Below are positions 13,391 to 35,102 of a stretch of DNA of 64,000 nt, piece after piece. A model generated the notes under the pieces. That model worked only from the letters and a program-made list of their open reading frames with translations, was not told the DNA's origin and ran no database searches. The position numbers were made by a program, and so were the translations under genes. The DNA comes from Thermoleophilia bacterium (GTDB lineage Bacteria; Actinomycetota; Thermoleophilia; UBA2241). The stretch's first letter is position 1; the number at the start of each line of letters is the position of its first letter. Location: contig JAXGYV010000001.1 in NCBI GenBank assembly GCA_040772045.1, forward strand, positions 69,577 through 133,576, written 5' to 3'.

Positions 13391-14410
13391 ATGGTGCAGG
13401 ACACGGCAGGTGAGCGGAAGCTCGTGACCGGCGACGTGCTGCGCGACCGTATTCGTGGCAGTCTGCTGGGCACGGCCGTGGGCGACGCGGTGGGCGCGCC
13501 GCTGGAGTTCCTCGACGGACACGCCATCTCCGCGCGTTTCGGCCCGCGGGGCGTGCAAGCCCCCGAGCCGTGGCGAGGATTGCCCGCGGGTAGCGTGACC
13601 GACGACACACAGCTCACGGTCGCCACGGCGCTCGGGTTGGCGGACGCGGAGCGAGACGTTGCCGCGGGGCGGGTGCACGACCCCGTAGGGCGTGTTCTCG
13701 ACCGGTACGAGGAGTGGTACCGTTCGCAGGCCGACTCGGTGCACCGGCGTGCGCCGGGCGCTACGTGTTTGACCGCGTTGCGCGAGGCGGCGGGGGGTTA
13801 CCGAGGAAGGGCGCGGAACGACAGCAAGGGCTGTGGCGGTGTGATGCGTATCGCACCCCTCGGCCTGGTGCCGCAGCGTGGCGATGTCTTTGCGCTCGGT
13901 TGCGAGCTGGCGGGGCTTACGCACGGCCACCCAACCGGTTATCTCGCCGCGGGCTTCCTCGCGGCGCTCGTCGCCCGCGTGGTAGGTGGCCAGCCGATCG
14001 ACGGCGCGCTGGATGCCTGCCAGAGCGAGCTCACGACGTACGCCAGACACCAGGAGACATCGCGTGCGGTGAGTCAGGCGCGGCGGCTCGCCGCCTCCCC
14101 GTGCTCGCTCGCGGAGGGCATCGAGGCACTGGGGGCGGGGTGGGTGGCCGAAGAGACCCTGGCGATCGCCTTGTTCTGCCACCTACGCTATCCGGGCGAC
14201 TGGGCGGCCGCGGTCCTCGGCGCCGCGAATCACGGCGGCGATAGTGATTCGACGGCCGCCGTCGCCGGCGCGCTCGCCGGCGCCGTGCTCGGCATCAGCG
14301 CCCTCCCCGGAGACTGGGTCACCGTCGTGGAAGACCGCGCCGGCCTGCTGGCACTGGCCGATGAGCTGTGGCGCCTCCATGGCGCGTGTGGAGGCAGGCC
14401 GTGCGGGTGA
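13391..14410 (+). CDS. ADP-ribosylglycohydrolase family protein (DraG/ARH-like)
   Basis: GSLLGTAVGDAVGAPLEF N-terminal Mg-binding motif, DDTQLT, C-terminal GGDSDSTAAVAGALAGA motif. Confidence 0.8.
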   Translation: MVQDTAGERKLVTGDVLRDRIRGSLLGTAVGDAVGAPLEFLDGHAISARFGPRGVQAPEPWRGLPAGSVTDDTQLTVATALGLADAERDVAAGRVHDPVGRVLDRYEEWYRSQADSVHRRAPGATCLTALREAAGGYRGRARNDSKGCGGVMRIAPLGLVPQRGDVFALGCELAGLTHGHPTGYLAAGFLAALVARVVGGQPIDGALDACQSELTTYARHQETSRAVSQARRLAASPCSLAEGIEALGAGWVAEETLAIALFCHLRYPGDWAAAVLGAANHGGDSDSTAAVAGALAGAVLGISALPGDWVTVVEDRAGLLALADELWRLHGACGGRPCG

Positions 14411-15054
14411 TCGGCGGCCAGTGGCGGGGCCGGGTACTGCGTGCTCCGCGCGGACGCGCTACGCGGCCCACCGCCGACATGGTCAGGGAGGCTATCTTCG
14501 ACATCCTTGGGGGCCTGCTCATCGCTAGGGGGGGTGAGCAGACCGTGGATCCCTATGCCGCGCTGGAAGTCGTCGACCTCTACGCGGGTAGCGGCGCGCT
14601 CGGCATCGAGGCACTCTCGCGAGGCGCCGCGCGGTGCACCTTCGTGGAACAGCACAAAAGCGCGCTGCGTACTCTGCGGCGCAATCTCGAGTGTCTGGGC
14701 GTGGCGCCCGCTCGCGTACGCGTGGTCGGCCGGCCGGTGGCCGATGCGCTGGCGGCTGACGCTCGAGAAGGGGTGCAGTATACTCTGCTGCTTGCGGACC
14801 CGCCGTACGGCGAGTACCGGCGGGCGGAAGCGGAGCTCGCGGCACTCATCCCAGCGGTGCTCGCGCCGGCGGGGGTCGTTGTTGTGGAAACGGCTCGCGG
14901 GCAAGCCGTGCGGCTTCCTCTGCACAGCGTGCGCGACAAGACCTATGGAGACACACGCGTTACGGTCATGGTGCGGGAAGACGCGATACAGCCCGGTAGT
15001 GCACAAGGCAAAGCGACGAGCACAGGCGGAGATGAACCATGCCCGATAAAGTGA
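14407..15054 (+). CDS. rsmD: 16S rRNA (guanine966-N2)-methyltransferase RsmD
   Basis: GTG overlapping upstream stop; DLYAGSGALGIEALSRGA SAM motif and DPPY catalytic motif. Confidence 0.8.
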   Translation: MIGGQWRGRVLRAPRGRATRPTADMVREAIFDILGGLLIARGGEQTVDPYAALEVVDLYAGSGALGIEALSRGAARCTFVEQHKSALRTLRRNLECLGVAPARVRVVGRPVADALAADAREGVQYTLLLADPPYGEYRRAEAELAALIPAVLAPAGVVVVETARGQAVRLPLHSVRDKTYGDTRVTVMVREDAIQPGSAQGKATSTGGDEPCPIK

Positions 15055-15545
15055 CCGCCATCTGTCCTGGGACCTTCGATCCCGTCACGGTGGGGCACCT
15101 CGACATCATCCGCCGAGGGGCCTGCAAGTTCCAGTCAGTGGTCGTGGGTCTCATCGAGACGCCGCTTCGCAAGCAGGTCCTCTTCACAGCCAAGGAGCGG
15201 CAGGCATTCTTGGAAGAGGCGCTCGAGGACGTCCCGAATGTGAAGGTGGATCCCTTCAACATGCTGGTGGTGGACTTCGCCCGCAAGTGGAACGCTACGG
15301 TGATTCTCAAGGGCTTACGTGCCATCTCGGATTTCGACTACGAGTTCGCGATGGCGCAGCTAAACAGGAAGTTGGCGCCCGAGATCGAAACGGTGTTCAT
15401 GATGGCGTCGCCCGAGCACTCATACCTGAGCTCGAGCGGTGTAAAAGAGATCGTCGCGTTCGGCGGTGCCCTTGTGGATCTTGTGCCGCCGGTGGTGGCG
15501 AAGGAGCTTGCTAGGCGCTTCCCGACCGGGGTGCCGCGACGCTAG
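15039..15545 (+). CDS. coaD: Phosphopantetheine adenylyltransferase
   Basis: CPGTFDPVTVGHLDII (T/HxGH nucleotidyltransferase) N-terminus; 168 aa. Confidence 0.95.
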   Translation: MPDKVTAICPGTFDPVTVGHLDIIRRGACKFQSVVVGLIETPLRKQVLFTAKERQAFLEEALEDVPNVKVDPFNMLVVDFARKWNATVILKGLRAISDFDYEFAMAQLNRKLAPEIETVFMMASPEHSYLSSSGVKEIVAFGGALVDLVPPVVAKELARRFPTGVPRR

Positions 15546-15566
15546 AGACGCTACGGAGGGCCGTAC

Positions 15567-16019
15567 ATGGACGTGCTCGTGCTCATCGATAAGCTAGACG
15601 ACGTCATCCATAACGCACGCACTGTGCCGCTCACGGATAGCGTCATGATCGACCGTGAGGAGATCTACGACCTTCTCGATCAGATGCGGGCGACCATTCC
15701 CGAAGAGATCAAGCAGGCGCGGTGGATCGTCAAAGAGCGGCAAGAGATGCTCGCCGAGGCTAAACAGGAGGCCGAGCGAATCGTGGCCGAGGCCAACGAC
15801 AAGGCGACCCGGCTGGCTTCGAAGGAAGACGTGGTTCGCCTGGCGGAGAAGCAGGCTATGGAGATCACCGACGACGCTCGTGAACGGGAACGCGAGATCA
15901 GGCTGGGCGCCGAGGATTACGCCGACGAGGTGCTGGGCAATCTCGAGGTGAATCTAGAGAAGTTCCTCGCCGCCGTACGTCGCGGACGCGAGCGCCTGCA
16001 AGGTCGCGGCGGCGACTAA
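15567..16019 (+). CDS. Conserved hypothetical coiled-coil protein (charged, ATP-synthase-b-like heptad character)
   Basis: 150-aa ORF with strong periodic E/K/R/A composition, positioned between coaD and the DUF177 gene; no family assigned. Confidence 0.5.
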   Translation: MDVLVLIDKLDDVIHNARTVPLTDSVMIDREEIYDLLDQMRATIPEEIKQARWIVKERQEMLAEAKQEAERIVAEANDKATRLASKEDVVRLAEKQAMEITDDAREREREIRLGAEDYADEVLGNLEVNLEKFLAAVRRGRERLQGRGGD

Positions 16020-16032
16020 CAGGTGGGCGGCC

Positions 16033-16533
16033 GTGGGCGGCGGCCGCGCGGAATGGTTCAGCGTGAAACGGTTTGATGTACGCAGCCTGCGCTTTGACGA
16101 GCGTAACGAGGCATGGCGGCGGTTCCCTGTGGAAGTGGAGCCGTTCGTGCTCGGGGGCGCGCCGTACGATGTGCGGGGCGGGCAGGTCGACCTCAGCCTG
16201 AGCGCCGGGCGGGTTGGCGAGCGGCTGACTCTCACCGTCTCCTTCAGCGCGACGCTCCGCGGTCCGTGCGATCGCTGTCTGGAGACGGCTGAGATACCCG
16301 TGGAGGTACGCGCCGTGGAGGTGGTGCGACGCGGCGAATCCGAGGGCGCGGATCCCGATGAAGCGTACGTTCGCGGGAGTATCCTCGACATCCATGCATG
16401 GGTACGGGATCTGATCGCATCCGCCTTGCCCGAGCGCATGTTGTGCAGTGAAGGATGCCGCGGCCTGTGCCCTATCTGCGGAGCCAATCTCAACACGGAG
16501 CCCGAGCACACCCATGAGGTAACGGGCTCATAG
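16033..16533 (+). CDS. yceD: YceD/DUF177 family protein (large-subunit rRNA accumulation protein)
   Basis: C-terminal CxxC...CPICGANLN zinc-ribbon-like motif and placement immediately upstream of rpmF, as for DUF177. Confidence 0.8.
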   Translation: MGGGRAEWFSVKRFDVRSLRFDERNEAWRRFPVEVEPFVLGGAPYDVRGGQVDLSLSAGRVGERLTLTVSFSATLRGPCDRCLETAEIPVEVRAVEVVRRGESEGADPDEAYVRGSILDIHAWVRDLIASALPERMLCSEGCRGLCPICGANLNTEPEHTHEVTGS

Positions 16534-16627
16534 GATGTACACGTTCGTGGTGGCAGGAGAGAGGAGTCGAGGTGTACTTGGCTGCCTCCGTACGGTACAG
16601 TAAGCCGCCGCAAGAAGGAGATTCGGT

Positions 16628-16819
16628 ATGCCAGTGCCCAAGAGAAAGACCTCGCAATCGCGCCGCGACAAACGGCGTGCTCAGCAGAAACTCACGGTGG
16701 AGACGGCCAGTTTCTGTCCGCAGTGCAAGAGCCCCAAGCTCCCGCATCGCGCGTGCCCCGTCTGCGGTACCTACAAAGGCCGCGAGATCATTCCGATCGA
16801 AGTGGGGCAGAAAAAGTAA
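16628..16819 (+). CDS. rpmF: 50S ribosomal protein L32
   Basis: MPVPKRKTSQSRRDKRR N-terminus, CPxC...CPVCG zinc ribbon; aaggag RBS. Confidence 0.95.
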   Translation: MPVPKRKTSQSRRDKRRAQQKLTVETASFCPQCKSPKLPHRACPVCGTYKGREIIPIEVGQKK

Positions 16820-16853
16820 CTCCGGGTGAAGCACGGCGAGGGCAAGGTGCCGA

Positions 16854-17897
16854 ATGAGGTCTCTCTACATCGCTTCCACTGAGGGAGGCGGCGGCAAGAC
16901 CACCATCGCCGTCGGCCTGTGTTTGGCTCTCCGTGTACGGGGCATCGGCACCGGGTACTTCAAGCCCGTCGGCGTTGCCAAGAATGGCGACCGCGACGCG
17001 GATGTGGCCTTTGCCGCCGAGGTGCTCGGCCTCACGGAGCCGCTCGAGGATCTCTGCCCCGTGACGCTCGACGAGCAAGCGCTCCGCGCCATGGGCGACG
17101 TTCAGGCAGACGCCATGGCGCGTATCGAGGAGTCGTACGGTAACGTCGCCATGGCGCACGAGCTGGTCGTCTGCGACGGGCTCGGCGAGATCTGGCAGGG
17201 CAGGTTTCTGCGCCTGAGCGGCGCGGACATCGTCACGCGCCTGGGGCTAGAGACGCTCCTCGTCTCCAAGTTCACCGGCACCCGACAACTCGACGACGTG
17301 TGCTACACGCACGACGTGCTCAGGAAACGTCTCCTGGGCGTGGTGTTCACGATGATACCCGAGACGCGTCTGGAAGTGGTGGAGCACCACTACGTGCCGT
17401 TTCTCGAGGAGAACGGCATTCGGACGTTTGGTTGCATCCCCTCGGACGCATGTCTTTCGGCGGTGCCCGTGAGCGATATCGCGAGCGCGCTGCGCGGCCG
17501 CTTCCTCAGTGGCGAGGAATGGGCTTCCGCGTCGGCGGAGACGTATCTCATCGGAGCTATGAGCGCCGACCATGCGCTGCGCTACTTCGAGCGCGTGCCG
17601 AAGAAGGTGGTGGTCGTCGGCGGCGATCGTGAGGATCTCATCCGCGCGGCGCTGCAAACGCCGACGACCGCGCTGATCCTCACAGGCAGCTACGTGCCGT
17701 CGGATGCGGTGCTCGCGCAGGCGCGCGCGGCCAAGGTATCGGTGGTGTCCGTTGCGGGCGATACCGTAGCCGCGGCGGAAGGACTCCGTCGCCTCTTCGG
17801 CCGCTTGCGTGTGCACGAGCGGAGTAAGATCGACCGCGTCCTCCAACTCATCGAAGAGCGGATCGATCTCGAGAGGCTGTTGACGGCCCTGCGGTGA
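16854..17897 (+). CDS. Stand-alone phosphotransacetylase N-terminal-domain-like protein (BioD/CbiA-like P-loop fold + DRTGG domain)
   Basis: N-terminus LYIASTEGGGGKTTIAVGL and YFKPVG resemble the non-catalytic N-terminal half of E. coli-type Pta; LILTGSYVP matches DRTGG; no acetyltransferase catalytic domain follows. Confidence 0.65.
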   Translation: MRSLYIASTEGGGGKTTIAVGLCLALRVRGIGTGYFKPVGVAKNGDRDADVAFAAEVLGLTEPLEDLCPVTLDEQALRAMGDVQADAMARIEESYGNVAMAHELVVCDGLGEIWQGRFLRLSGADIVTRLGLETLLVSKFTGTRQLDDVCYTHDVLRKRLLGVVFTMIPETRLEVVEHHYVPFLEENGIRTFGCIPSDACLSAVPVSDIASALRGRFLSGEEWASASAETYLIGAMSADHALRYFERVPKKVVVVGGDREDLIRAALQTPTTALILTGSYVPSDAVLAQARAAKVSVVSVAGDTVAAAEGLRRLFGRLRVHERSKIDRVLQLIEERIDLERLLTALR

Positions 17898-18910
17898 GCG
17901 CGGTCACGACCGAATCGTCCGTGCGGCGGCCCGTCGTGCGGGTCGCCGTGGATGCGCAGGGCGGCGACAACGCGCCCGCCGCGATCGTGCAGGGCGCTCT
18001 ACAGGCCGCGTCCGCGGACCTCGAAGTGCTGCTCGTCGGCCGCGGCGCGGAGATCGAGCCCCTCGTAGGAGGCGCGACTCACGTGCGTCTCGTCGAGGCG
18101 CCCGATGTCATCGGCGGCGGCGAGGAGCCAGCGAACGCCGTGCGCAGCAAACCCGACTCATCGATGGTGGTAGCCACACGGCTGGTCGCCCAGGGCGAAG
18201 CGGATGCCGTCTTCTCGGCCGGGAACACCGGTGCCTTTCTGGCAGCGGGGCTGCTGAGTGTGCGTCGTCTTCCCGGGGTGTTAAGGCCCGCTATCTGCCA
18301 GGTGTTGCCCTCGCTACCTCGCCCGACGCTGCTGCTCGATGTGGGCGCGAACGCCGAGGTAAAGCCCGAGCATCTGCGACAGTTCGCGCATATGGGGAGC
18401 GCGTTCGCCAGCGAGGTCCTCGGCGTGCGCGAACCGGTAGTGGGGTTGCTGTCTATCGGCGAGGAGCCGGGGAAGGGCACGCCTCAGGTTGTCGCAGCAC
18501 ATGCTCTGCTGGCGGCCGACCCCGGGTTGCGGTTCTACGGTAACGTGGAGGGGCGCGACCTACTCTCCTCCGTGGTCGACGTGGTCGTCACCGACGGGTT
18601 CAGCGGCAACGTGGCGCTGAAGACTGCGGAAGGTGCCGCGCATGCGGTTATGGGTCTCGTGAAGCAGGCCGTAGGGACCTCCTGGCGCGCCAAGCTCGGT
18701 GGGCTGCTGCTCAAACCGGACTTGCTCCGCGTGCGTGCTGCCGTAGACCCGGAGGAGTACGGCGCCGCTCACCTCCTGGGTATGCGGCGCCCTGTGCTGG
18801 TCGGTCACGGATCGTCCGGAGCACGCGGGGTGGAGAACGCGGTGCGCTTCGCTGGCCTGGCCGTGCGCAGTGGGTTGGTCGAGGTGATCGCGCGCTGTCT
18901 CGGGTTGTGA
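17894..18910 (+). CDS. plsX: Phosphate:acyl-ACP acyltransferase PlsX
   Basis: VAVDAQGGDNAP, SMVVA, GNTGA motifs; 338 aa. Confidence 0.9.
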   Translation: MSAVTTESSVRRPVVRVAVDAQGGDNAPAAIVQGALQAASADLEVLLVGRGAEIEPLVGGATHVRLVEAPDVIGGGEEPANAVRSKPDSSMVVATRLVAQGEADAVFSAGNTGAFLAAGLLSVRRLPGVLRPAICQVLPSLPRPTLLLDVGANAEVKPEHLRQFAHMGSAFASEVLGVREPVVGLLSIGEEPGKGTPQVVAAHALLAADPGLRFYGNVEGRDLLSSVVDVVVTDGFSGNVALKTAEGAAHAVMGLVKQAVGTSWRAKLGGLLLKPDLLRVRAAVDPEEYGAAHLLGMRRPVLVGHGSSGARGVENAVRFAGLAVRSGLVEVIARCLGL

Positions 18911-19019
18911 CAGCCGGAGGCCTCTCTCAGCTTACCTGAGGGCGGTCGACGTCCTGTCCGGAAACGAGCAGTGACCGTGAGCAAGGTGAAGGCCGCTCTT
19001 TGTCGACGGTGGGCGTTCT

Positions 19020-19030
19020 GGTACAGTACC
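19020..19030. promoter_or_regulatory. Perfect 11-bp palindrome GGTACAGTACC in the plsX-acpP spacer (candidate operator)
   Basis: Seen directly; followed by a ccgacc...ggtcgg hairpin and the ggagg RBS of acpP. Confidence 0.2.
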
Positions 19031-19056
19031 GACCAAATCCCGGTCGGAGGTTCTGC

Positions 19057-19302
19057 ATGTCGCGTGACGAGATCTTGCTGGTCATCAAGGAGTTCCTGCT
19101 CGAGGCACTTCCGCTCACCGAAGAGCGTATTACTCTGGAGGCGCGTTTTCAGGAAGACCTGGAAGCCGACTCGCTGGACTTGGTAGAGCTAATCATGGCT
19201 CTGGAAGAGAAGTTCGATATCAAGATCACCAACGAAGAGGCAGTGCAGATCAAGACGGTCGGCGATGCCGTCGACTTCGTCGAGCAGCGCACCGCCGGCT
19301 GA
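19057..19302 (+). CDS. acpP: Acyl carrier protein
   Basis: 82 aa, DSLDLVEL phosphopantetheine-attachment motif; ggagg RBS 7 nt upstream. Confidence 0.95.
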   Translation: MSRDEILLVIKEFLLEALPLTEERITLEARFQEDLEADSLDLVELIMALEEKFDIKITNEEAVQIKTVGDAVDFVEQRTAG

Positions 19303-19334
19303 GCTCTAGCGGAGCTTGGCTCATGTCGTACAGG

Positions 19335-19357
19335 GGGGACGCTCACGGAGCGTCCCC
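19335..19357 (+). terminator. Hairpin downstream of acpP: perfect 10-bp stem ggggacgctc / gagcgtcccc, loop acg; no U-tract
   Basis: Seen directly, 33 nt after the acpP stop. Confidence 0.5.
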
Positions 19358-19402
19358 GTCTCTCGGGGAGCTTTGGACGCCAGGTCTGGGTGACGGTAAG
19401 CT

Positions 19403-20140
19403 GTGACCTGGCGTCTGCTCACCCTCCTCGATCAACTCGAGCCATCAGTGGTTCGTCAGGTGTTCACGCATTCATCCTGGGTTGGCGATCGCGCGCGTTC
19501 CTACGAGCGCTTGGAGTTCCTGGGCGATAGCGTCCTCAACCTAGCGCTCACCACCGAGCTGTATCGGCGGTATCCGCAGTTCGCCGAGGGCCACCTGGCG
19601 CGCTTGCGCGCATACGTGGTGAGTCGCGAGACGTGCGCCGCGGTGGCTCGCGAGTTGGGGTTAGGAAAGCGCATGGTGCGTACCGCGGGCGACGGGCGCG
19701 AGGCGGCGGAAGTGGAGCAGCTCGCCGCCAACTCCAACGTTTTGGCGGACCTGACGGAGGCGCTGATCGGCGCCATCTATATTACGTATGGGTTTCCAAC
19801 GGTCCGTCCCGCCGTGATCGAGGCGTTCGCGGCGCACATCAGCTTCGCGGAGAAGAGCTACGTCGACTTCAAGACGGAACTGCAGGAGGTGCTCGCCAAA
19901 ACGGCGCGCAGCGTTGTCTACCGCACGGTGGTGGAGAGCGGGCCGGCCCATGACCGGCGCTTCGAGGTGGAGGCCGTGGTCGACGGCGCCGCGGTGGGCC
20001 GCGGCAGCGGGCCGAGCAAGAAGCGCGCGGAGCAGCAGGCGGCGGCCGAGGCGCTGGCCGTCTTAACTGCCGAGGCCGTACCGAAAGAACGCCCGCGTGT
20101 ACGCCTGTTCGGCCGACGACGGAGCAAGGAAGAGGCTTAG
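19403..20140 (+). CDS. rnc: Ribonuclease III
   Basis: ERLEFLGDSVLNL RNase III signature, C-terminal dsRBD; GTG start. Confidence 0.95.
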   Translation: MTWRLLTLLDQLEPSVVRQVFTHSSWVGDRARSYERLEFLGDSVLNLALTTELYRRYPQFAEGHLARLRAYVVSRETCAAVARELGLGKRMVRTAGDGREAAEVEQLAANSNVLADLTEALIGAIYITYGFPTVRPAVIEAFAAHISFAEKSYVDFKTELQEVLAKTARSVVYRTVVESGPAHDRRFEVEAVVDGAAVGRGSGPSKKRAEQQAAAEALAVLTAEAVPKERPRVRLFGRRRSKEEA

Positions 20141-23100
20141 GTGTATCTCCGCGCGATTCGCTTGCGGGGCTTCAAGTCGTTTGCGAAGAAGACCGATCTC
20201 TTGCTCGAGCCGGGTGTCGCGGTGGTCATCGGCCCGAACGGCAGCGGCAAGAGTAACCTCGCCGAGGCCGTCATGTGGGCGCTCGGCGAGCAAAGCCCCA
20301 GCAGTGTCCGCGGTGCCTCCATGCAAGACGTTATCTTCGCCGGTAGCGATGGCCGGCGCGCGGCTGGCGGAGCCGAGGTCGAGTTAACCTTCGATAACAG
20401 CGACGGCGCATTGCCACTGCCGACGCCCGAGATCAGCATTCTGCGGCGTGTGCGGCGAGATGGCCAGTCGGAGTATCGCATCAACCAGGCCGTGTGCCGC
20501 CTGAGTGATGTCGTCGAGCTCATGAGCGCCGTGGGGTTGGGCAAGGAACTGCACTCGATCATCGGCCAGGGGCGGGTGGAATCTTTTCTCTCGAGCAAGC
20601 CGGCGGATCGCAGGGCGATGGTCGAGGAGGCGGCGGGGCTCGGTCGCTACAAGCGCCGGCGGGAACGCGCTGTGCTCAAGCTGCGCGAGACCCAGCGCAA
20701 TCTCGAGCGGGCACGCGATCTGGAGCGCGAGGTGGCGATGCAGATCTCCCCGCTGCGTCGCCAGGCGAGCGCGGCCGAGCAGCTGCGCGCGGCAGAGCGA
20801 GAGCTGGAAGAAGCTCGAGGGCGGCTCCTGGCGGGTGAGCTGGCTACTCTAGATGCTCGCCTGGCCGCGTACCGCGAGCAGATCGCCGGCTGTGCGGCGG
20901 AGGGCGAGCGCCTGGACGCGGAGCTGGTGACGCTCGCCGAGGGCAGGACAGCCCAAGAGGAGGAGCTCGCGCGCGCGTTGCGCGAGCGCGAGCAACGCGC
21001 GATGCGCGCCCTGCGCGCTCGCGCGCTGGTTGGCCGGCTGGAGGGCTGCGAGCGGCTCACGGAGCAGCGCGCGCGCCTCTTCGAGGAGGTGCTACGCTCC
21101 GCGGAGGCAGAGCGCGATCGACTGCTCACCGATCTCGCGGCGCAGTCGGACCAAGAAGACACCTGGCCGCAGGAACGCCTGGCATTGCAGGCGGCTCTCG
21201 AGCGAGCGAGCGCCGAGCATACACGCACGGCCGATCGGGTGGCGGAGGCGCGTCGCGTGTCGGCGGAACGTCGCGCCGAGGTGAGTCGCGCGGAGGCCGA
21301 ACGATACGAGTCGGTGGTGCGGGCGGCGCGCCTTGTGGAACGCCGTTCCGCGCTGCGCGCGGAGCTCGGCACGCTGGAGCGGGAGATGAGGGAGCTCGAG
21401 ACAGAGGCGAGCGCGCTCGAGTCCAGCCTGACGGCTGCCCTCACCGAGCGAACGCGGCTGGACGAGGCGGAGATGACCGCGGTTGGCGAGCTCGAGCGCG
21501 CCATCGCCGCCGAGGAGGAGGCCGCTCGCGGTCTGGCCGCGGCAGAGGCGCGACGGGCGGAGCGCGGCGCCGACGTGGCGGCGGCGAGTGCTGAGGCGGC
21601 GCAGCTCGCGGCAGCCCTCTCGGCGCTGCAAGATGTAGACGAAGAGACGGCGGGCGTGCTCGCACGGTACCCTGGCGTCGCCGGCCTGGCGGACGGGTTG
21701 CACTGCGATGAGGGATACGAGCTGGCGCTGGGTGCGGCGCTCTCGTATCGCGGCAGCGCGGTCGTGGTGCCCGGCGACGTCGATCGCTGGACGCTGCTGG
21801 GTGCCTTGCGCGCGGCGGGCATCCGAGTGGCGCGGCTGGTGCTGCCCAGGGGCGGAGCGGCTGCGGAGGATGTGGCGGCCGCGGGTCTCGAGCCGCTGCT
21901 CGCACGCGTACAGGGCGCCCAGGGCCGCGTACGAGAGCTCCTGACCAGCGCCTACGTGGCCGACGACCTGCGGGCCGTTCCATCCACCTTCGAGGGCATT
22001 GCGGTCACTCGCCGGGGCGAGTACTACCGGCCCGCAAGCGGCGAGCTCGGCGTTGCCGCCGGCCTGCCGGCCGCGGTACTGCTCGAGCGTCGCGGCCGTC
22101 TTGCGGCGGTTGAGCGGCGCCGCACGGAAGCCGAAGGCGCGTTGCAGTGGGCGGAAGAGGACGCACGGACGGCTCGGCAGGTGGCCGAAGGACGTACCGG
22201 CGAGCGCATGCGCCGCGAGCACGAGGTGGAGGGTGCGCGCGCCGCCGCGGCGCGCGCGCGTCGCGAGTCGAATGCGCTCCAGGCGCGCGCGCAGGAGGCC
22301 GCCAGCGCGCGGGCGCGTGCCACACGGAAGAGCGAGGCGCACCTGGCCGAGCTCGCTGGTTTAGACGACGAGGTCGAGGCGCTCGAGCGACGCGCGGCCG
22401 AGGTGCTGGTTGCGGCGCAGCACGCCGCTGGGCCGCTGGCGGAAGCCGAGGCGGCGGTCGTCGCCGCCGAGGAGGAACATGAGCACGCGCTGAGCATGCT
22501 GACCCGCTGCCGCGTGGAGCTCGAACAGCGGGCTGCCGCGGCGGAGCGCGCGGCGGCCGAGCGAGAGGCGCGCCAGGCGAAGGCCAGGGCCGCGCAGGAG
22601 CGGCTTCAGACCCTGCAGAAGCGGCTGGCGAGCGTGCCTCAGGCCGTAACGGCCGCGGCGGCGCTGCGCCAGGCAGTGCACTCTCTCTTGGCGGTGGCGA
22701 GTACGGCCGCCGAACGCCTGGAGCAGGCCGACGATCGTGGGCTGCGCGTGCCGGACCGCGAGGGCCTGCGCCAGATGGCTGTGCGTGAAGCGGAGATACG
22801 CCGCTCGGCCGACGACGCCCGCGAGCGGCGGATCGCCGCTCAGGTGGAGGTGGCCCGCCTGGAGGAGCGGCGCGGCGATGTGGTCGCGGCTTGGGAACGG
22901 GTGGCGGGGCGGCTCGAGGTGGCCCACTTTGCGCCGCCTGCTGACGAAGACGAGGCCGCCGCGTTGGCTCGCGCGGTAGAACGCGCGGAGCGGCGAATCG
23001 AACGCATTGGGCCCGTGAATCCGCTCGCCGAGGCCGAGTGCGCCGAGCTCGGCGAGCGGGCGGCCTTCCTGCGCGAGCAGCGTCGCGACATGGAGCGCTC

Positions 23101-29910: not shown

Positions 29911-30998
29911 GCCGATATGGCCGACAGCCCCTCGCGGAGCTCCGCGAGAGTGGGCCAACCATATCCCACGCGCATGTACCGTCGCGGTTGTTCGAACCAG
30001 TGGCCGGGGCCAACGTACGTGCCGTACTTATGGAGCAATACGCTGTAGAAAAGGTCCAGGTCGACCGGCACCTCAGGCTTGATGCGCGGGAAACAGACTA
30101 CGCCACCCTGTGGCTGGATCCACTCCATGAGATCCTCTGTCGCCATCCATTTGGCAACCACGGTGAGGGCTTCGGCGATGCGGTGCCGAATCTCGGGTAA
30201 CCACGTGGCCCGTTGTGAGAACACCTGGAAGGCGATCTCCTCGTCCACGACGCTGTTGCAGATGCCGATCTGCTCTTTGGCGGCGAGGAAGGTGGAGAGC
30301 AGCTCGCTGTCGGAGCAGACCGCCCACCCCATGCGGATACCCGGGATGCCATAGGTTTTGGAGAGCGACGAGACGCTGATGACGCGTTCGCTGAGAGTGG
30401 CCGCTACGGGGAGGCATGCTCCGTAGGTCATCTCCCTGTACGTTTCGTCTACCAGCAGCCGGCAGCCGGCGCGCTCGACGCCGCGTACCAGTGTCTCCAG
30501 CTCGGCGGGGGTCATCACTTGTCCGGTCGGGTTGTGCGGGACGGTGACGCTGACGCAACGCGTGGTAGGGCGGATCATGTGGAGCAGGCGCTCGACGTCC
30601 AACCGGAAGCCGTCTTCGAAGCGCAAGTCGTAGTACGTGCTGTCGACGCCGATGGCCCGCGGGACCTCGATGTTGGTGGCGTAGTTGGGCCGTACCACCA
30701 CCAGGTGATCGCCGGGTTCCAGGAGCGCCGTGGCGATAATGAAGAGAGCGTGGGCGGCCCCAGCGCATACCAGCACGTGGTCGGCGGTGATGCCGGCGCC
30801 GCTCTGCGCGGCGATCAGCTCGCGGAAGCTTGGGTGCCCCGCGTGATCGCCGTAGAACAGCACCAGGTTGGGGAGCTGCACGCCGATCTCCGCCAGAGAG
30901 CGATCGCGCACCGAACTCTCCGAGAGATTGAAGGTGATGGCGCCATATCCGAGCTGTTCGGGGGACTCTTCCTCCATCGGCATCCGTACGTACTTCAC
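29886..30998 (-). CDS. Class I/II PLP-dependent aminotransferase
   Basis: 370 aa; SLSKTYGIPGIRMGW PLP-lysine motif, fold-type I aminotransferase architecture; ATG overlaps the upstream ATPase stop (ATGA). Confidence 0.8.
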   Translation of the reverse strand: MKYVRMPMEEESPEQLGYGAITFNLSESSVRDRSLAEIGVQLPNLVLFYGDHAGHPSFRELIAAQSGAGITADHVLVCAGAAHALFIIATALLEPGDHLVVVRPNYATNIEVPRAIGVDSTYYDLRFEDGFRLDVERLLHMIRPTTRCVSVTVPHNPTGQVMTPAELETLVRGVERAGCRLLVDETYREMTYGACLPVAATLSERVISVSSLSKTYGIPGIRMGWAVCSDSELLSTFLAAKEQIGICNSVVDEEIAFQVFSQRATWLPEIRHRIAEALTVVAKWMATEDLMEWIQPQGGVVCFPRIKPEVPVDLDLFYSVLLHKYGTYVGPGHWFEQPRRYMRVGYGWPTLAELREGLSAISAALRDAHP

Positions 30999-33763
30999 CT
31001 TACGGCTCCTTTACGCTTGGGGTGGGGGGATGGCTGGCTGGCCGGTTCAAAGGAAACGTCCCGGCCGGCGAGCTCGACGCAGGCCACCGCGTCGCCGAGT
31101 TCCTCGCGGAGCATATCGCGGGTCCCGGGGTGACAAGTGAAGAGGAGCACCTGCTGATCGGGCGCCAGGGTGCCCAGTACGCGACAGAGTGCCCGTGCTC
31201 GCTGAGGGTCGAAGTTGACCAGCACCTCGTCCATGACCAGGGGCAGACGTGCCGCGCGGGCGCCGAACTCTTCGGCGAGGGCGAGGCGAACACAGAGGTA
31301 GAGCTGCTCTGCCGTACCGCGGCTCAGCTGAACGGTCGTCTTGCGGGCTCCATGATCGTCCACGACGGCAAGCTGTTGGGGGAGGCCTTCCTGCACGATC
31401 CGTACGTAACGACCCTGGGTGACGTGAGCGAACAGAGAAGAGGCGCGGGCCAAGACGCGCGGCTGATGGTGCTCGGTAAACGAGGCGAGAGTGCGTGAGA
31501 CGAGGGCACCGGCCAGGGTGAGCGCGCGCCACGAGTGCGCCAGCGTCCGAAGGTCTTGCGTTACGGCCTGTACAGCGGCGGCGGCCGCCGGGACATCCGC
31601 CGATGCTTCGATGTGTCGCCGGGCCGTCTCGGCGTCGCGGCAGCGCTTGGCCGCCGCCGCCAGCTGCTGGTCGGCCTCGCCGAGACTCGTGGCGAGGTGA
31701 TCCGCTCGGGTTTGCCACTCGCTCAGCCGGCCGGTGGCCAGCTCGGCTTGGGCGGCGGAGTCGCATCCCAATCGGCCCTCCACGACGGCGCGGGCTGCGG
31801 CGACGCGTCGCAGTGCTTCCTGGCGCCGCTCGACAGTCTCGTGGAGGGCGGACACGCGCGCCAGAAGCTGCTCGCCGCTGGGGGGCGCTGCCGTCCATAC
31901 TTGGTCGGCCTGCTGCAGCGCGCTGGTAGCTTGCTGCTCCCAAGCGCGGCGCGCGTTCTCCAGGGCACTGAGCTGTCCGTGCGCCTCGGCTACGGCGGCC
32001 AACTTGTCGCGTGCTGCTTCGGCGGCACGCAAGAAATCCAGGGCGCCGGCGGGTGAGAGCTGTTCCGGCAAGCCGGCGGCCGAACGATGTTCCTTCCACG
32101 CCGCCGCCGCCCGCGCGGCCGCGTCCACGGCCTGACGGTACGTCTCGTGCAGCGGAGCCGTCTCTTCGCGCCGGATGCGCAGCCGTTCGGCGCGCAGGTG
32201 GAGCTCGGTGGCCAGGCGGTCGTACTCGGCGCGTCGGGCGAGCGCATCGCGAAGAGCGGCATCGCGCTGCTCGACCTCGTGGGTTGGGGGCTCCGCGGGC
32301 AGCGAGAGACGCTCGCACGCGGCCGCTACGCGCTGCTCCAAGTCGCGGCACGCGCTGGGCGCGGGAGCGGTGCGCGTCCACTGCGTGGCGACGACGATCC
32401 CTCCCACCGTGCCCGCCGCGATCAGCAGCGTGCCGAGCAACGGGTCGCCGGACACGAGCCTCCAGACACCGAGCGCCACGATGAAGAGCGTCGGGATCAC
32501 CGTGGCGAGCGTGAGCGTCAGACCACCGCTCCCGCGACGTGCGGCGCGGGCCACGCGGAGGTCGCTGAGATCAGCGCGCAGTTGGGCGCAGAGACGGGTA
32601 TGCGCGCGCAGCTCGTGCTCGGGCGGGGGCTCCTCCGTCGGCATGGTGCGCTGGAACTCGGCGAGATCCTGCTCGCGCTGCCGGAGCTCGTCGCGGGCTC
32701 GGTCGAGGGCGATGGCGGCAGCCTGAGTCGCGCTGGCCGTCTCCTCCAACTGCTGTTGACAGGAGCGTATGGCCTCCCGGGCGGGGATGGAGGTATCGAG
32801 TGCCGCCAAGCGCTCCTCGGTCCAGGCCGGCCCGAGATCGGCCAGCGCGGCGTCGGCCTGTTCGCGCGCCACCGACAGCGAAGCGTGCAGGCGCGGTTGT
32901 CGTTCGAGGCGATCGCGCTGGAGCTCCAGGGTGCGCACCAGCTCGGTGAGCGACTCGACGGCGAGGGGTGGGAGGGGAGGAAGCGAGTCAGCGGCGGCTT
33001 GTGCCTCCACGAGTGTCTGCCATGGCGGCCAGAGCTCGAGGAGATCGGTGACGCGCCGCACCTCCTCGCGCTGCGCCTCGACCTGGCGCTGAAGCTCCTG
33101 GAGATCCTGCTCGGCGGCACGCTCCTCGTCTTGCCGGCGGGCGTACTCGGCGGCGAGACGCCGCGCGGTGGACAGATCGGCCTGTGCGCGGTCGTACGCC
33201 GCGAGTGCTGTGCGGAGCTTGTCTTGGCGCGCCGTTTTGCGGAAGATCTCGGCCGCCCGTTGCTCGGTGGCGGTGAGGGCGCGCCGCGCCGAAAGGCCGG
33301 CGCCGGTGAGCCCGGCGGAGAATATGCGTTCGGCGACGCCCTCATCGGACAGGCTGGAGAACGCCTGGAGCTCCGCGAGGCTGAAGGCGAAGATCGACTC
33401 GAAGAGCGCCTTATCCGCATTGCCGAGCATGCGGAGCAGGTCGCCGGGAGTGCCGGGTTCGCCGTCTCCATACGTAACGTGAGGAGGTGCGTTGCGGCGT
33501 CCGGCTTGGCGGTCCACGGTAAGCAGTCTGCCGTCACTCTGAAGCACCAGGCGCCCGCCGTGGCGCGCGCCCGTCGGCGCCTCGTAGACAGTCCCGCTCC
33601 GTCGGTCTTTGAAGCCGAAGAGCACGCCGCGGATGAAGGCGAGCAAGGTGCTCTTGCCCGCCTCGTTAGGGCCGTGCAGGACGGTGATGCCATCCGGCAG
33701 TTCCGGGCCGGCGTGGTCGCGGAATACGCCGAAGCCGTCGATCGACCAAGAGACGATCTTCAT
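30995..33763 (-). CDS. SbcC/YhaN-like AAA ATPase (Rad50/SMC-like, DNA repair/anti-DNA nuclease ATPase subunit)
   Basis: 922 aa; N-terminal VLHGPNEAGKSTLL Walker A, very long Ala/Arg/Glu coiled coil, C-terminal LPLVMDEVLVNFD Walker B/D-loop. Confidence 0.8.
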   Translation of the reverse strand: MKIVSWSIDGFGVFRDHAGPELPDGITVLHGPNEAGKSTLLAFIRGVLFGFKDRRSGTVYEAPTGARHGGRLVLQSDGRLLTVDRQAGRRNAPPHVTYGDGEPGTPGDLLRMLGNADKALFESIFAFSLAELQAFSSLSDEGVAERIFSAGLTGAGLSARRALTATEQRAAEIFRKTARQDKLRTALAAYDRAQADLSTARRLAAEYARRQDEERAAEQDLQELQRQVEAQREEVRRVTDLLELWPPWQTLVEAQAAADSLPPLPPLAVESLTELVRTLELQRDRLERQPRLHASLSVAREQADAALADLGPAWTEERLAALDTSIPAREAIRSCQQQLEETASATQAAAIALDRARDELRQREQDLAEFQRTMPTEEPPPEHELRAHTRLCAQLRADLSDLRVARAARRGSGGLTLTLATVIPTLFIVALGVWRLVSGDPLLGTLLIAAGTVGGIVVATQWTRTAPAPSACRDLEQRVAAACERLSLPAEPPTHEVEQRDAALRDALARRAEYDRLATELHLRAERLRIRREETAPLHETYRQAVDAAARAAAAWKEHRSAAGLPEQLSPAGALDFLRAAEAARDKLAAVAEAHGQLSALENARRAWEQQATSALQQADQVWTAAPPSGEQLLARVSALHETVERRQEALRRVAAARAVVEGRLGCDSAAQAELATGRLSEWQTRADHLATSLGEADQQLAAAAKRCRDAETARRHIEASADVPAAAAAVQAVTQDLRTLAHSWRALTLAGALVSRTLASFTEHHQPRVLARASSLFAHVTQGRYVRIVQEGLPQQLAVVDDHGARKTTVQLSRGTAEQLYLCVRLALAEEFGARAARLPLVMDEVLVNFDPQRARALCRVLGTLAPDQQVLLFTCHPGTRDMLREELGDAVACVELAGRDVSFEPASQPSPHPKRKGAVR

Positions 33764-33791
33764 CCGCCGACCCTCACCTGTCCGCCGGGTG

Positions 33792-35102
33792 TCATTGCTC
33801 GTCCTCTTCGGTGAGGAGATCGAGGGCGATGGTCTCGGCGGCCGCCATCAGAGGGACGAGGTCTTCGTCCGGCAGCTGCCGGAGGGCCTCTGGGAGCCTT
33901 CTGAGCGGTAACTCACGATTGAGCTCGTCGAGCAGATGGCGCAGTGCGATCGGGTCGGCGAGCAGGGCGTCGGCCTCGGCGACCACCTGCGCCGCGAAGT
34001 CGTGTCGTTCGCGGATCTGGTCGCGGTCGATCTGCGGCCGCGTTGCGTCGGAGAGGGCGTCCCACCAGAGGAAGGGGAGCTGCGCCACGCTGCGTTCGCG
34101 CAGCTCCTCGAGAAGGCTGGGCAGAACGCCCGGGCGAGCTAGGAGGCTGTGCGCAGGCCCACGACCGTCCACGGTGGCGCGCACCACCAGCGGTAGGCCG
34201 CCCTCCTCGGCGCGCCGCCTCTCGGCGGCTTGGAGGAGCTCGTCGAGGACGTCGCTGATGTCGGCACAGGTCGACACGTCGGCGTGCAGTGCTGCGAAGC
34301 GCAGTGCGTCGCACGCGTGGAAGCGTACGTTGGCCACGCGGCCATCCGCGCACTCCACCACTAGGGCGCCTTTGGCGTCGGTCTCGGAGGGCTTCATACT
34401 CCGCCCCTGCAGGTTCCCTGGGTAAGCGATCACGGGAGTGCCGTCGCCGAGCGTCTGCCGTTTGTGGATGTGACCGAGGGCCCAGTAGTCGATGGGTGCT
34501 TGACGGAGGTCGGCGAGGGAACAGGGGCTGTAGGGGAGATGTTCACTGCTCGATATGGCGCTACAGTGCAGGAGTCCGATCCTGAGCGCGGCGGAGTGAT
34601 CTGCGGCCGGCGAGGCGGCAGCGGCGAGGTGCCGCGGGCGAAAGCGCAGGGCGAGGTTCTCGCTGGTCTCGCGGCGCGCGTAACTGATGCCGGTCACGGT
34701 GGCGAGACACCGGCCGTCTCTCTCCACGGACACCGTCTGCACGTCGGTGTGGTCCAGAATGGTGACGCCCGCCGGCCAATGGATGATGGCGGACCAGCCC
34801 TCTTCCACCGGATCGTGGTTGCCGTGCACGACGAACGTCTGGATGCCGCGCTCGCTCAGGCGCTCGAGGCCGCGGAGAAAGCGAAGTTGGGCGCGGACAC
34901 CGCGGTCGACTCCATCGTAAATATCGCCGGCGAGGAGCAGAAAGGCGGCGTCCTCCGCGATGCAGAGCTCGACGAGGTGGTCCCAGGCGTGCAGCGACGC
35001 CTCGATCAGAGCCTCCCTGACCTGCCCAGTGGCAGTGGAGATGCCCTCGAGTGGTGTGTCCAGGTGCAAATCGGCGGCATGGACAAAGCAGAAGCTGCTC
35101 AC
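33792..35102 (-). CDS. SbcD/Mre11-like calcineurin-type metallophosphoesterase (YhaO-like nuclease subunit)
   Basis: FVHAADLHLD motif I, LLAGDIYD, VVHGNHD phosphoesterase motifs. Confidence 0.8.
   Translation of the reverse strand: MSSFCFVHAADLHLDTPLEGISTATGQVREALIEASLHAWDHLVELCIAEDAAFLLLAGDIYDGVDRGVRAQLRFLRGLERLSERGIQTFVVHGNHDPVEEGWSAIIHWPAGVTILDHTDVQTVSVERDGRCLATVTGISYARRETSENLALRFRPRHLAAAASPAADHSAALRIGLLHCSAISSSEHLPYSPCSLADLRQAPIDYWALGHIHKRQTLGDGTPVIAYPGNLQGRSMKPSETDAKGALVVECADGRVANVRFHACDALRFAALHADVSTCADISDVLDELLQAAERRRAEEGGLPLVVRATVDGRGPAHSLLARPGVLPSLLEELRERSVAQLPFLWWDALSDATRPQIDRDQIRERHDFAAQVVAEADALLADPIALRHLLDELNRELPLRRLPEALRQLPDEDLVPLMAAAETIALDLLTEEDEQ

Follow-up and report, generated by a model that had tools for sequence, protein, structure and literature searches.

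A stand-alone P-loop/DRTGG protein encoded directly upstream of plsX in a Thermoleophilia clade: origin of the gene order and a possible role beside PlsX

What is a protein that resembles only the non-catalytic N-terminal half of a phosphotransacetylase (Pta) doing directly in front of plsX? The question is raised by a stretch of 64,000 nucleotides (nt) from a Thermoleophilia bacterium (assembly GCA_040772045.1, contig JAXGYV010000001.1, positions 69,577 to 133,576), here called the window, in which a protein of 347 amino acids (aa), here called PtaN, is encoded at 16854..17897 (+). An earlier reading of the bare sequence (the original prediction) had placed the gene between rpmF and plsX-acpP, in the slot occupied by fapR in Bacillus-type genomes, and had proposed a metabolite-sensing regulator or partner of phospholipid synthesis. 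That the N-terminal P-loop/DRTGG module of long Pta influences allostery and oligomerisation has been established for decades. Our best overall explanation, which we consider evenly poised between right and wrong, is that PtaN would be a nucleotide-binding regulatory or assembly subunit brought next to plsX by the loss of a gene for a nucleoside-diphosphate-forming acetyl/acyl-CoA synthetase (ACD), with PlsX as its likely client.

PtaN is almost certainly an intact gene for a free-standing two-domain protein. Its open reading frame starts with ATG, ends with TGA and is preceded by GAGGG about 12 nt 5' of the start; homologues align from residue 1 onward, which supports the N-terminus as called. 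Pfam finds a BioD-like P-loop domain, AAA_26, at residues 2-202 (16857..17459, +; E 3.9e-24) and a DRTGG domain at residues 208-313 (17475..17792, +; E 2.4e-24), the latter including GGDR (17619-17630) and LILTG. The domain assignment of the original prediction is thereby confirmed, and the motifs it had quoted, LYIASTEGGGGKTT, FKPVG and LILTGSY, are all present in the protein. An AlphaFold2 model built from a 49-sequence alignment likewise predicts exactly two domains (mean predicted local distance difference test 90; predicted template-modelling (TM) score 0.82). In a Foldseek search the N-terminal domain of the model matched BioD structures (3of5 and 1dts; target TM 0.70-0.74, E 1e-9) and the C-terminal one AF_1212 of Archaeoglobus fulgidus (PDB 2IOJ; target TM 0.82, 37% identity). 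AF_1212, which the PtaN family profile matches at E 1.4e-46, is a stand-alone DRTGG protein of 139 aa that corresponds to the C-terminal half of the PtaN family and differs from PtaN in having no P-loop domain.

The PTA_PTB catalytic domain (PF01515) was not matched in PtaN by Pfam, as the original prediction had also held; the protein stops at residue 347, and plsX comes next. NCBIfam matches PtaN best to the phosphate acetyltransferase model PRK05632, with a score of 120.6 bits where the cut-off is 418, and PtaN covers only positions 2-370 of the 708 in that profile. The BioD model TIGR00347 scores 22.2 bits against a cut-off of 83.3. PtaN is not a phosphotransacetylase, since the catalytic domain is absent; it is not BioD, being below the cut-off, and it is not FapR.

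The same architecture recurs widely. A protein search with PtaN returned at least 256 homologues from metagenomes and metagenome-assembled genomes (MAGs); those listed are 346-357 aa long with the same two domains, under source names such as 'BioD-like phosphotransacetylase family protein' and 'phosphotransacetylase family protein [Thermoleophilia bacterium]'. When 1.84 billion representatives, each standing for one protein cluster at 50% identity, were searched exhaustively with HMMER, 1776 relatives came up, 294 of which reached E 1e-30 or better. The best 150 of these 1776 representatives are all stand-alone, nearly all 320-370 aa long with a few shorter fragments, and 28-57% identical to PtaN. 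PtaN thus belongs to a large family of free-standing proteins of about 350 aa that is annotated yet uncharacterised, and such stand-alone genes should not be called phosphotransacetylase. In the literature searched, which was incomplete, nothing was found on this family beyond DVU3031 of D. vulgaris, nor any description of the pairing of PtaN with ACD or with plsX, which given that incompleteness is no proof of novelty.

We give practically no credence to the reading that PtaN is an artefact or pseudogene, a long Pta broken by a frameshift or an assembly error. The match to only part of PRK05632 speaks for it; set against this are hundreds of homologues of the same length, conservation of the kind seen in core genes (see below), a complete plsX as the next gene, and the lack of PTA_PTB homology nearby in any frame. 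A truncated Pta is ruled out on these grounds, and so is the fused, frameshifted Pta that the original prediction had allowed for, because the homologues share length and architecture and the downstream DNA encodes PlsX.

The nucleotide site of PtaN is intact at the level of sequence. An intact Walker A motif, GGGGKTT, is read from the sequence at G11-T17 (K15, T16; 16884..16904, +), and this P-loop, G11-GGGKTT-17, aligns with GTDTEVGKT of E. coli BioD. K15, K37 (within YFKPVG), D50 and D108 of PtaN align with K15, K37, D54 and E115 of E. coli BioD; the D108 position is E in most family members. Conservation over the family is at least 90% at each of G14, K15, K37, P38, D48/D50, G109 and G116, and likewise in the GAM, GGDR and LTG motifs of the DRTGG domain. 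All of the family-wide residues, namely G14, K15, K37-P38, D48/D50, G109, G116, GAM 234-236, GGDR 256-259, T277-G278, P282 and T304, are kept in PtaN and its clade. In E. coli Pta the Walker A position reads GTSVGLTS, without the lysine. Because the motif is kept here and the lysine is lost there, the stand-alone proteins look like competent nucleotide binders, unlike E. coli Pta, and PtaN is a predicted nucleotide binder.

These residues also bear on the improbable alternative that PtaN is an autonomous ATP-dependent enzyme, phosphorylating a carboxyl or carbamate oxygen in the manner of BioD, CobQ or CTP synthase. The acyl phosphate that it made or used might feed PlsX or PlsY, and the DRTGG domain might be a substrate or regulatory module. 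Such an activity would suit the family-wide conservation of the Walker A motif and of the K37, D54 and E115 equivalents of BioD, as opposed to an E. coli Pta without the Walker lysine, and also the fact that all genomic partners of the family make or use acyl phosphates or acyl thioesters. The same nucleotide-site residues would, however, equally fit a switch or regulator. PtaN has in common with BioD the fold and these equivalent residues, and differs in lacking a BioD-type substrate-binding signature, as its low TIGR00347 score reflects, in carrying the extra DRTGG domain and in having no biotin-operon context. ACD enzymes, moreover, are reportedly active without a partner of the PtaN type, according to work on the Archaeoglobus enzymes.

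The genomic company kept by the family outside the window clade shows that its dominant partner is ACD, with the acetyl-CoA synthase cluster as a second recurrent setting. Six distant members (33-44% identity) were looked up singly; two lie directly 3' of ACD and four in a Wood-Ljungdahl cluster. The ACD in question is a protein of about 700 aa with CoA_binding, Succ_CoA_lig and ATP-grasp_5 domains, and the cluster order is AcsB - CdhD - RACo - PtaN - CdhD - AcsE - DUF166 - CooC x2. A metagenome census then covered 80 loci of distant members, found with a query alignment of 23 sequences sharing the TGGDRxDIQ motif, a search pattern that biases the census toward one part of the family. The same-strand upstream neighbour was ACD in 57 loci and RACo in 15; seven were cut by the contig edge, which leaves 73 informative loci, and one had neither. 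The ACD-linked loci often read AcsE-ACD-PtaN. The Wood-Ljungdahl subgroup (L083-L086, L088, L089, L099, L103, L106, L110, L115, L116, L120, L121, L123, L139, L141 and L143) is monophyletic, and in it PtaN always lies between RACo and a small CdhD/AcsD-like subunit. In D. vulgaris, DVU3031 adjoins pta-ack (PMC4481167). DVU3031 resembles PtaN in combining the AAA and DRTGG domains without a catalytic domain, and in being uncharacterised; it differs in that its genomic partner is an acetyl-CoA/acetyl-phosphate enzyme, whereas that of PtaN is plsX. Beside AF_1212 lies AF1211, which we take to be the characterised ADP-forming acetyl-CoA synthetase and which as such would fit the ACD linkage.

At the window locus none of these usual partners (ACD upstream, acetyl-CoA synthase cluster or pta-ack) is present; the gene 5' of PtaN is rpmF and the gene 3' of it plsX. 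The whole 64-kb window was found to contain neither ACD nor Pta nor AckA. Among the 73 informative distant loci, plsX lies nearby in just one, L167, where ACD also adjoins PtaN.

It is this locus that suggests how PtaN came to stand beside plsX. L167 is distant from the window (30% GC; its PlsX is 36% identical to that of the window) and reads rsmD-coaD-unk150-rpmF-ACD-PtaN-plsX-acpP-rnc-smc, where unk150 is a conserved coiled-coil reading frame of 150 aa. This is the gene string of the window with ACD added, but without a detectable yceD. The gaps are 4 nt between ACD and PtaN and 204 nt between PtaN and plsX, and the ACD passes the TIGR02717 'acetate--CoA ligase alpha subunit' domain at 584 bits against a cut-off of 567.

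A second type of locus is that of the sister clade. The sister loci L171, L173 and L175 read (recG-)rsmD-coaD-unk160-yceD-rpmF-ACD-PtaN, the gene after ACD in L175 being present by its first residues only, while L176 reads yceD-ACD-PtaN with no rpmF called in the yceD-ACD gap. The same rsmD-coaD-unk150 genes lie upstream in L171 and L173, and the coaD, unk150 and rpmF products of the sister loci are 59-75% identical to those of the window; the genes 3' of PtaN in these loci are unrelated to the window string.

In a neighbour-joining tree of PtaN (100 bootstrap replicates, rooted on the N-domain of E. coli Pta), the window clade was monophyletic in 99 of 100 replicates, the sister group, consisting of L081, L171/L173 and relatives, in 92, and the two together in 88. 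The sister group is ACD-linked wherever its context is known, and so are all other branches of the tree, the Wood-Ljungdahl members forming one nested group.

The ACD of L081, the closest outgroup locus, was used as query in a protein search, which returned P0326 ('acetate--CoA ligase family protein [Thermoleophilia bacterium]') along with P0327, P0328 and P0324. Just three hits of this sister type reached 60-62% identity, the level expected for Thermoleophilia orthologues, and all three lie on contigs where rpmF is immediately followed by ACD, and ACD by PtaN or the beginning of PtaN; the next hits are Chloroflexi proteins at 54% identity or less. Because the hits at the expected identity are all of the sister, rpmF-linked type, the loci and the protein search suggest, indirectly, that the window clade has no orthologous ACD.

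An ancestral string yceD-rpmF-ACD-PtaN-plsX-acpP would account most simply for these arrangements. Deletion of ACD in the window clade would have left PtaN directly before plsX, and the connection of PtaN to plsX would have been lost in the sister clade. We think it quite likely that the position of PtaN between rpmF and plsX stems in this way from the loss of ACD in an ancestral operon. Given that ACD is the usual partner, and given the gene orders of the sister loci and L167, the slot beside plsX is most simply a deletion scar.

As an observation in its own right, at least three separate lineages (30%, 57% and 58-62% GC) have the ACD-PtaN pair immediately 3' of yceD-rpmF, the loci concerned being L160, L167, L171, L173, L175 and L176. 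A gene for an acetyl/acyl-CoA synthetase thereby sits inside a ribosomal-protein/lipid-synthesis operon in those lineages.

Within the window clade the linkage to plsX is firm. A genome scan with the single PtaN protein as query gave no confirmed relative; a scan of one genome per GTDB species with alignment A1 as query gave 80 loci at 50-59% identity to PtaN, nearly all from uncultured Thermoleophilia or Actinomycetota MAGs, with one Deltaproteobacteria label. Every clade locus with enough DNA, about 75 genomes, has the order coaD-unk150-yceD-rpmF-PtaN-plsX-acpP-rnc-smc. The original prediction had made its case depend on linkage to plsX in related genomes; this is borne out in every one of these genomes and breaks down outside the clade. 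Compared with the window proteins, PtaN has a median identity of 54.7%, PlsX of 58.3%, YceD of 52.3% and SMC of 53.2%, and since PtaN is on a par with its neighbours its constraint is typical of core genes. No ACD, Pta or AckA was found within 6 kb of PtaN in the 80 loci.

The junction itself is tight. In the window the PtaN stop TGA (17895-17897) overlaps the GTG start of plsX (17894) in a GTGA (17894..17897, +). About 50 of 69 clade loci likewise have, in the plsX frame, an available ATG or GTG in ATGA/GTGA overlap with the stop of PtaN; among the other junctions, three show an 8-nt overlap and some ten a gap of 3-13 nt. Such overlaps are common in the operon and are accordingly only moderate evidence of a special relation between PtaN and plsX.

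If ACD was lost, the question becomes what PtaN now serves. In the proposed mechanism the module would act on enzymes that turn an acyl thioester and phosphate into an acyl phosphate, working in cis within long Pta and in trans on ACD; once ACD had been lost, PtaN would have been kept under purifying selection and translationally coupled to plsX, and would tune the flux from acyl-ACP to acyl phosphate according to energy or metabolite state. Pta converts acetyl-CoA and phosphate to acetyl phosphate, and the first partial reaction of ACD is the same; PlsX converts acyl-ACP, the acylated acyl carrier protein, and phosphate to acyl phosphate. For Pta, ACD and possibly PlsX, the enzymes that the module accompanies, the shared chemistry would be phosphorolysis of an acyl thioester, with an acyl phosphate as product.

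In published comparisons of structures (PMC12978539, PMC10194888), PlsX is counted as a structural homologue of Pta and of Ptb. Our own hhalign comparison of PlsX with the catalytic domain of E. coli Pta extended over 216 columns and was statistically weak (E 0.0067, probability 6%), for which reason the shared fold is taken from the published work. A switch of partner to PlsX would be plausible because of this fold, and PlsX would be the most likely client because, besides having this catalytic fold of Pta, it alone among the enzymes of the operon performs thioester phosphorolysis. That PlsX is the present client of PtaN in the window clade is nevertheless a tentative proposal. About as tentative is the stronger form of it, in which PtaN was recruited to PlsX and the coupled genes encode a split 'class-II-Pta-like' phosphate acyltransferase, with PtaN gating activity by energy or metabolite status. 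For fused Pta, as summarised in PMC12724200, full activity and oligomerisation depend on the N-terminal region, and a DRTGG substitution alters activation by pyruvate.

The N-terminus of PlsX offers a further hint. The PlsX of 68 out of 76 clade loci begins at an overlapping ATG and carries a conserved N-terminal extension of about 28 aa that is absent from canonical PlsX. Its consensus is M..(R)-P-Y-[TV]-S-P-H-[EW]-V-T-[AD]-A-W-S-A....R-V-V-R, followed by VVVDAAGGD. The extension was seen in the L001-L080 loci, for example at 7059-7150 of L005, and was compared with 17894-17935 of the window; residue 15 of the window PlsX is where the PDB structures of PlsX start, and likewise the Pfam and TIGR models. 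PtaN ends where the interdomain linker of E. coli Pta begins, and the spacing of the extension is that of this linker plus the first helix: S at -19, P at -18, hydrophobic residues at -15, -11 and -8, A at -7 and R at -1 are common to both. A permissive hhalign comparison of extension and linker gave the same alignment at a non-significant E of 0.29. If the correspondence is true, PtaN and PlsX would together be colinear with a long Pta.

The main rival reading accepts the same history and grants PlsX no part in it: the slot would be a deletion scar and nothing else, the adjacency to plsX would be meaningless, and PtaN would still serve the acetyl-CoA/acetate node through a partner encoded elsewhere, which could be a paralogue of ACD, a Pta of the short class I or some other acetyl-CoA enzyme. 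We regard this as a substantial possibility, if short of an even one. It draws on the overwhelming tie of the family to ACD or acetyl-CoA synthase clusters, on the position of DVU3031 beside pta-ack noted above, on the retention of all family-wide residues in the window clade, whose DRTGG motif resembles that of the ACD-linked sister, and on the synteny of the whole region, which accounts for the conserved adjacency. It has to reckon with the lack of ACD, Pta and AckA in the window and within 6 kb in the 80 clade loci, with an ACD at orthologue-level identity that was found only as the rpmF-linked sister type, and with a coupling to plsX that tightened after the loss of ACD, from the 204-nt gap of L167 to the overlap seen here.

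Several observations weigh against PlsX as the client. The adjacency of PtaN and plsX was inherited from an older arrangement and so is not independent evidence of a functional link; with the string from coaD to smc syntenic throughout the clade, it is to be expected in any case. Overlapping or abutting genes are common in this same operon, rsmD and coaD overlapping and rnc and smc abutting. The conserved extension of PlsX is missing from the window itself, where, as in the four nearest relatives (L012, L026, L059 and L061), it is short (14 aa) and unconserved. Among the family-wide conserved residues, no obvious change marks an altered function in the window clade, and no fusion of PtaN with PlsX was seen, although no dedicated search was made for one. 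As only loci were inspected, the rest of the genome may encode a different client, for instance a paralogue of ACD or a short Pta. No biochemical function was found in the literature for any stand-alone member, and the sole phenotype in the family, that DVU3031 matters in growth on L-lactate (PMC10102598), comes from D. vulgaris.

The position before plsX had led the original prediction to FapR. In Bacillus, fapR is encoded directly upstream of plsX in the order fapR-plsX-fabD-fabG-acpA. The open reading frame and Pfam calls bear out the placement of PtaN between rpmF and plsX-acpP, and the location 5' of plsX-acpP-rnc-smc-ftsY is indeed that of fapR in Bacillus; the step from position to function is the weak part. 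FapR, a malonyl-CoA-responsive repressor of Firmicutes, has only this position in common with PtaN; its fold is unrelated, and PtaN has no DNA-binding domain. Pfam and NCBIfam found neither a helix-turn-helix (HTH) or other DNA-binding domain nor a hotdog domain in PtaN, and the AlphaFold2 model searched with Foldseek gave BioD and DRTGG folds only. Without an HTH or a hotdog malonyl-CoA-binding domain PtaN cannot work like FapR, and it was rejected as a FapR analogue.

A FapR-like metabolite-sensing regulator of phospholipid or fatty-acid synthesis genes in the fapR slot is accordingly very improbable. The position directly 5' of plsX-acpP is real and kept in the clade, and the homologous region of long Pta mediates allosteric effects, as summarised in PMC12724200; outside the clade, lipid genes are associated with the family in one of the 73 informative loci, and ACD is there too. 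A role of PtaN as partner of PlsX is possible, since PlsX shares the catalytic fold of Pta.

PtaN can also be compared with other known systems. Class II (long) Pta has the same two domains in the same order (E. coli/Salmonella residues 1 to about 390), and PtaN aligns end to end with residues 1 to about 370 of the E. coli enzyme at 19% identity. Long Pta differs in its fused PTA_PTB catalytic domain, whereas PtaN stands alone, keeps the Walker A lysine and has PlsX encoded next. The CBS-domain family II pyrophosphatases (PDB 3L2B, 3L31) contain a DRTGG insert homologous to that of PtaN (E 1e-12), located differently, between CBS domains inside a DHH enzyme.

The surrounding genes are those of a housekeeping region. 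Upstream of PtaN lie rsmD (14368-15054), coaD (15039-15545), unk150 (15567-16019, +), yceD (DUF177; 16033..16533, +; Pfam YceD) and, as immediate 5' neighbour, rpmF for ribosomal protein L32 (16628..16819, +; Pfam Ribosomal_L32p). Downstream, plsX (phosphate acyltransferase; 17894..18910, +) is called by Pfam FA_synthesis at 1e-96 and by TIGR00182 at 319 bits against a cut-off of 243, and its product matches the PDB PlsX structures 1u7n, 6a1k and 1vi1 at E 1e-74. It is followed by acpP for acyl carrier protein (19057..19302, +, with an alternative TTG start at 19000; Pfam PP-binding) and then by rnc, smc, ftsY and ffh. A scan of 14300-20300 for promoters and terminators gave no excess over shuffled expectation and is uninformative on operon boundaries.

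Some features of the region stand apart from the case of PtaN. The order in E. coli is plsX-fabH-fabD-fabG-acpP; in the window acpP follows plsX directly, with no fabD, fabG or fabH between them, unlike the Bacillus and E. coli orders. The downstream synteny rnc-smc-ftsY-ffh...trmD...lepB-rnhB is as in Firmicutes. Although unk150 belongs to no Pfam family, no gene of the string is better conserved: its median identity over 72 clade loci is 83%, while that of CoaD is 74%. It is present also in L160, L167, L171 and L173, and its only similarity, to DivIVA/Wag31 and to ATP synthase subunit b, is weak and below threshold. A gene of the ADP-ribosylglycohydrolase family (PF03747, E 2e-69) lies at 13391-14410 (+), between a pyrimidine-nucleoside phosphorylase gene and rsmD, in surroundings that are otherwise housekeeping. 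An SbcC/SbcD-like pair at 30995-35102 (-) comprises a 922-aa AAA_27/AAA_23 protein and a 436-aa calcineurin-like phosphoesterase. Rfam found no family at gathering score on either strand of the 64 kb. GC skew is positive over the whole window and most genes of its first 29 kb are on the plus strand, which fits a leading-strand core-gene region.

Taken as a member of its family, PtaN represents an unusual derived context within a known but uncharacterised group of proteins, and the plsX-coupled clade could be a new functional variant of it. The locus amounts to a natural experiment, in which one Thermoleophilia clade probably lost the usual partner of the module and kept the module tightly coupled to plsX. 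If it is true that the module regulates PlsX, this would be a new post-translational control point of bacterial phospholipid synthesis; if PlsX is not regulated, the clade would still allow a clean test of the module's function in the absence of ACD.

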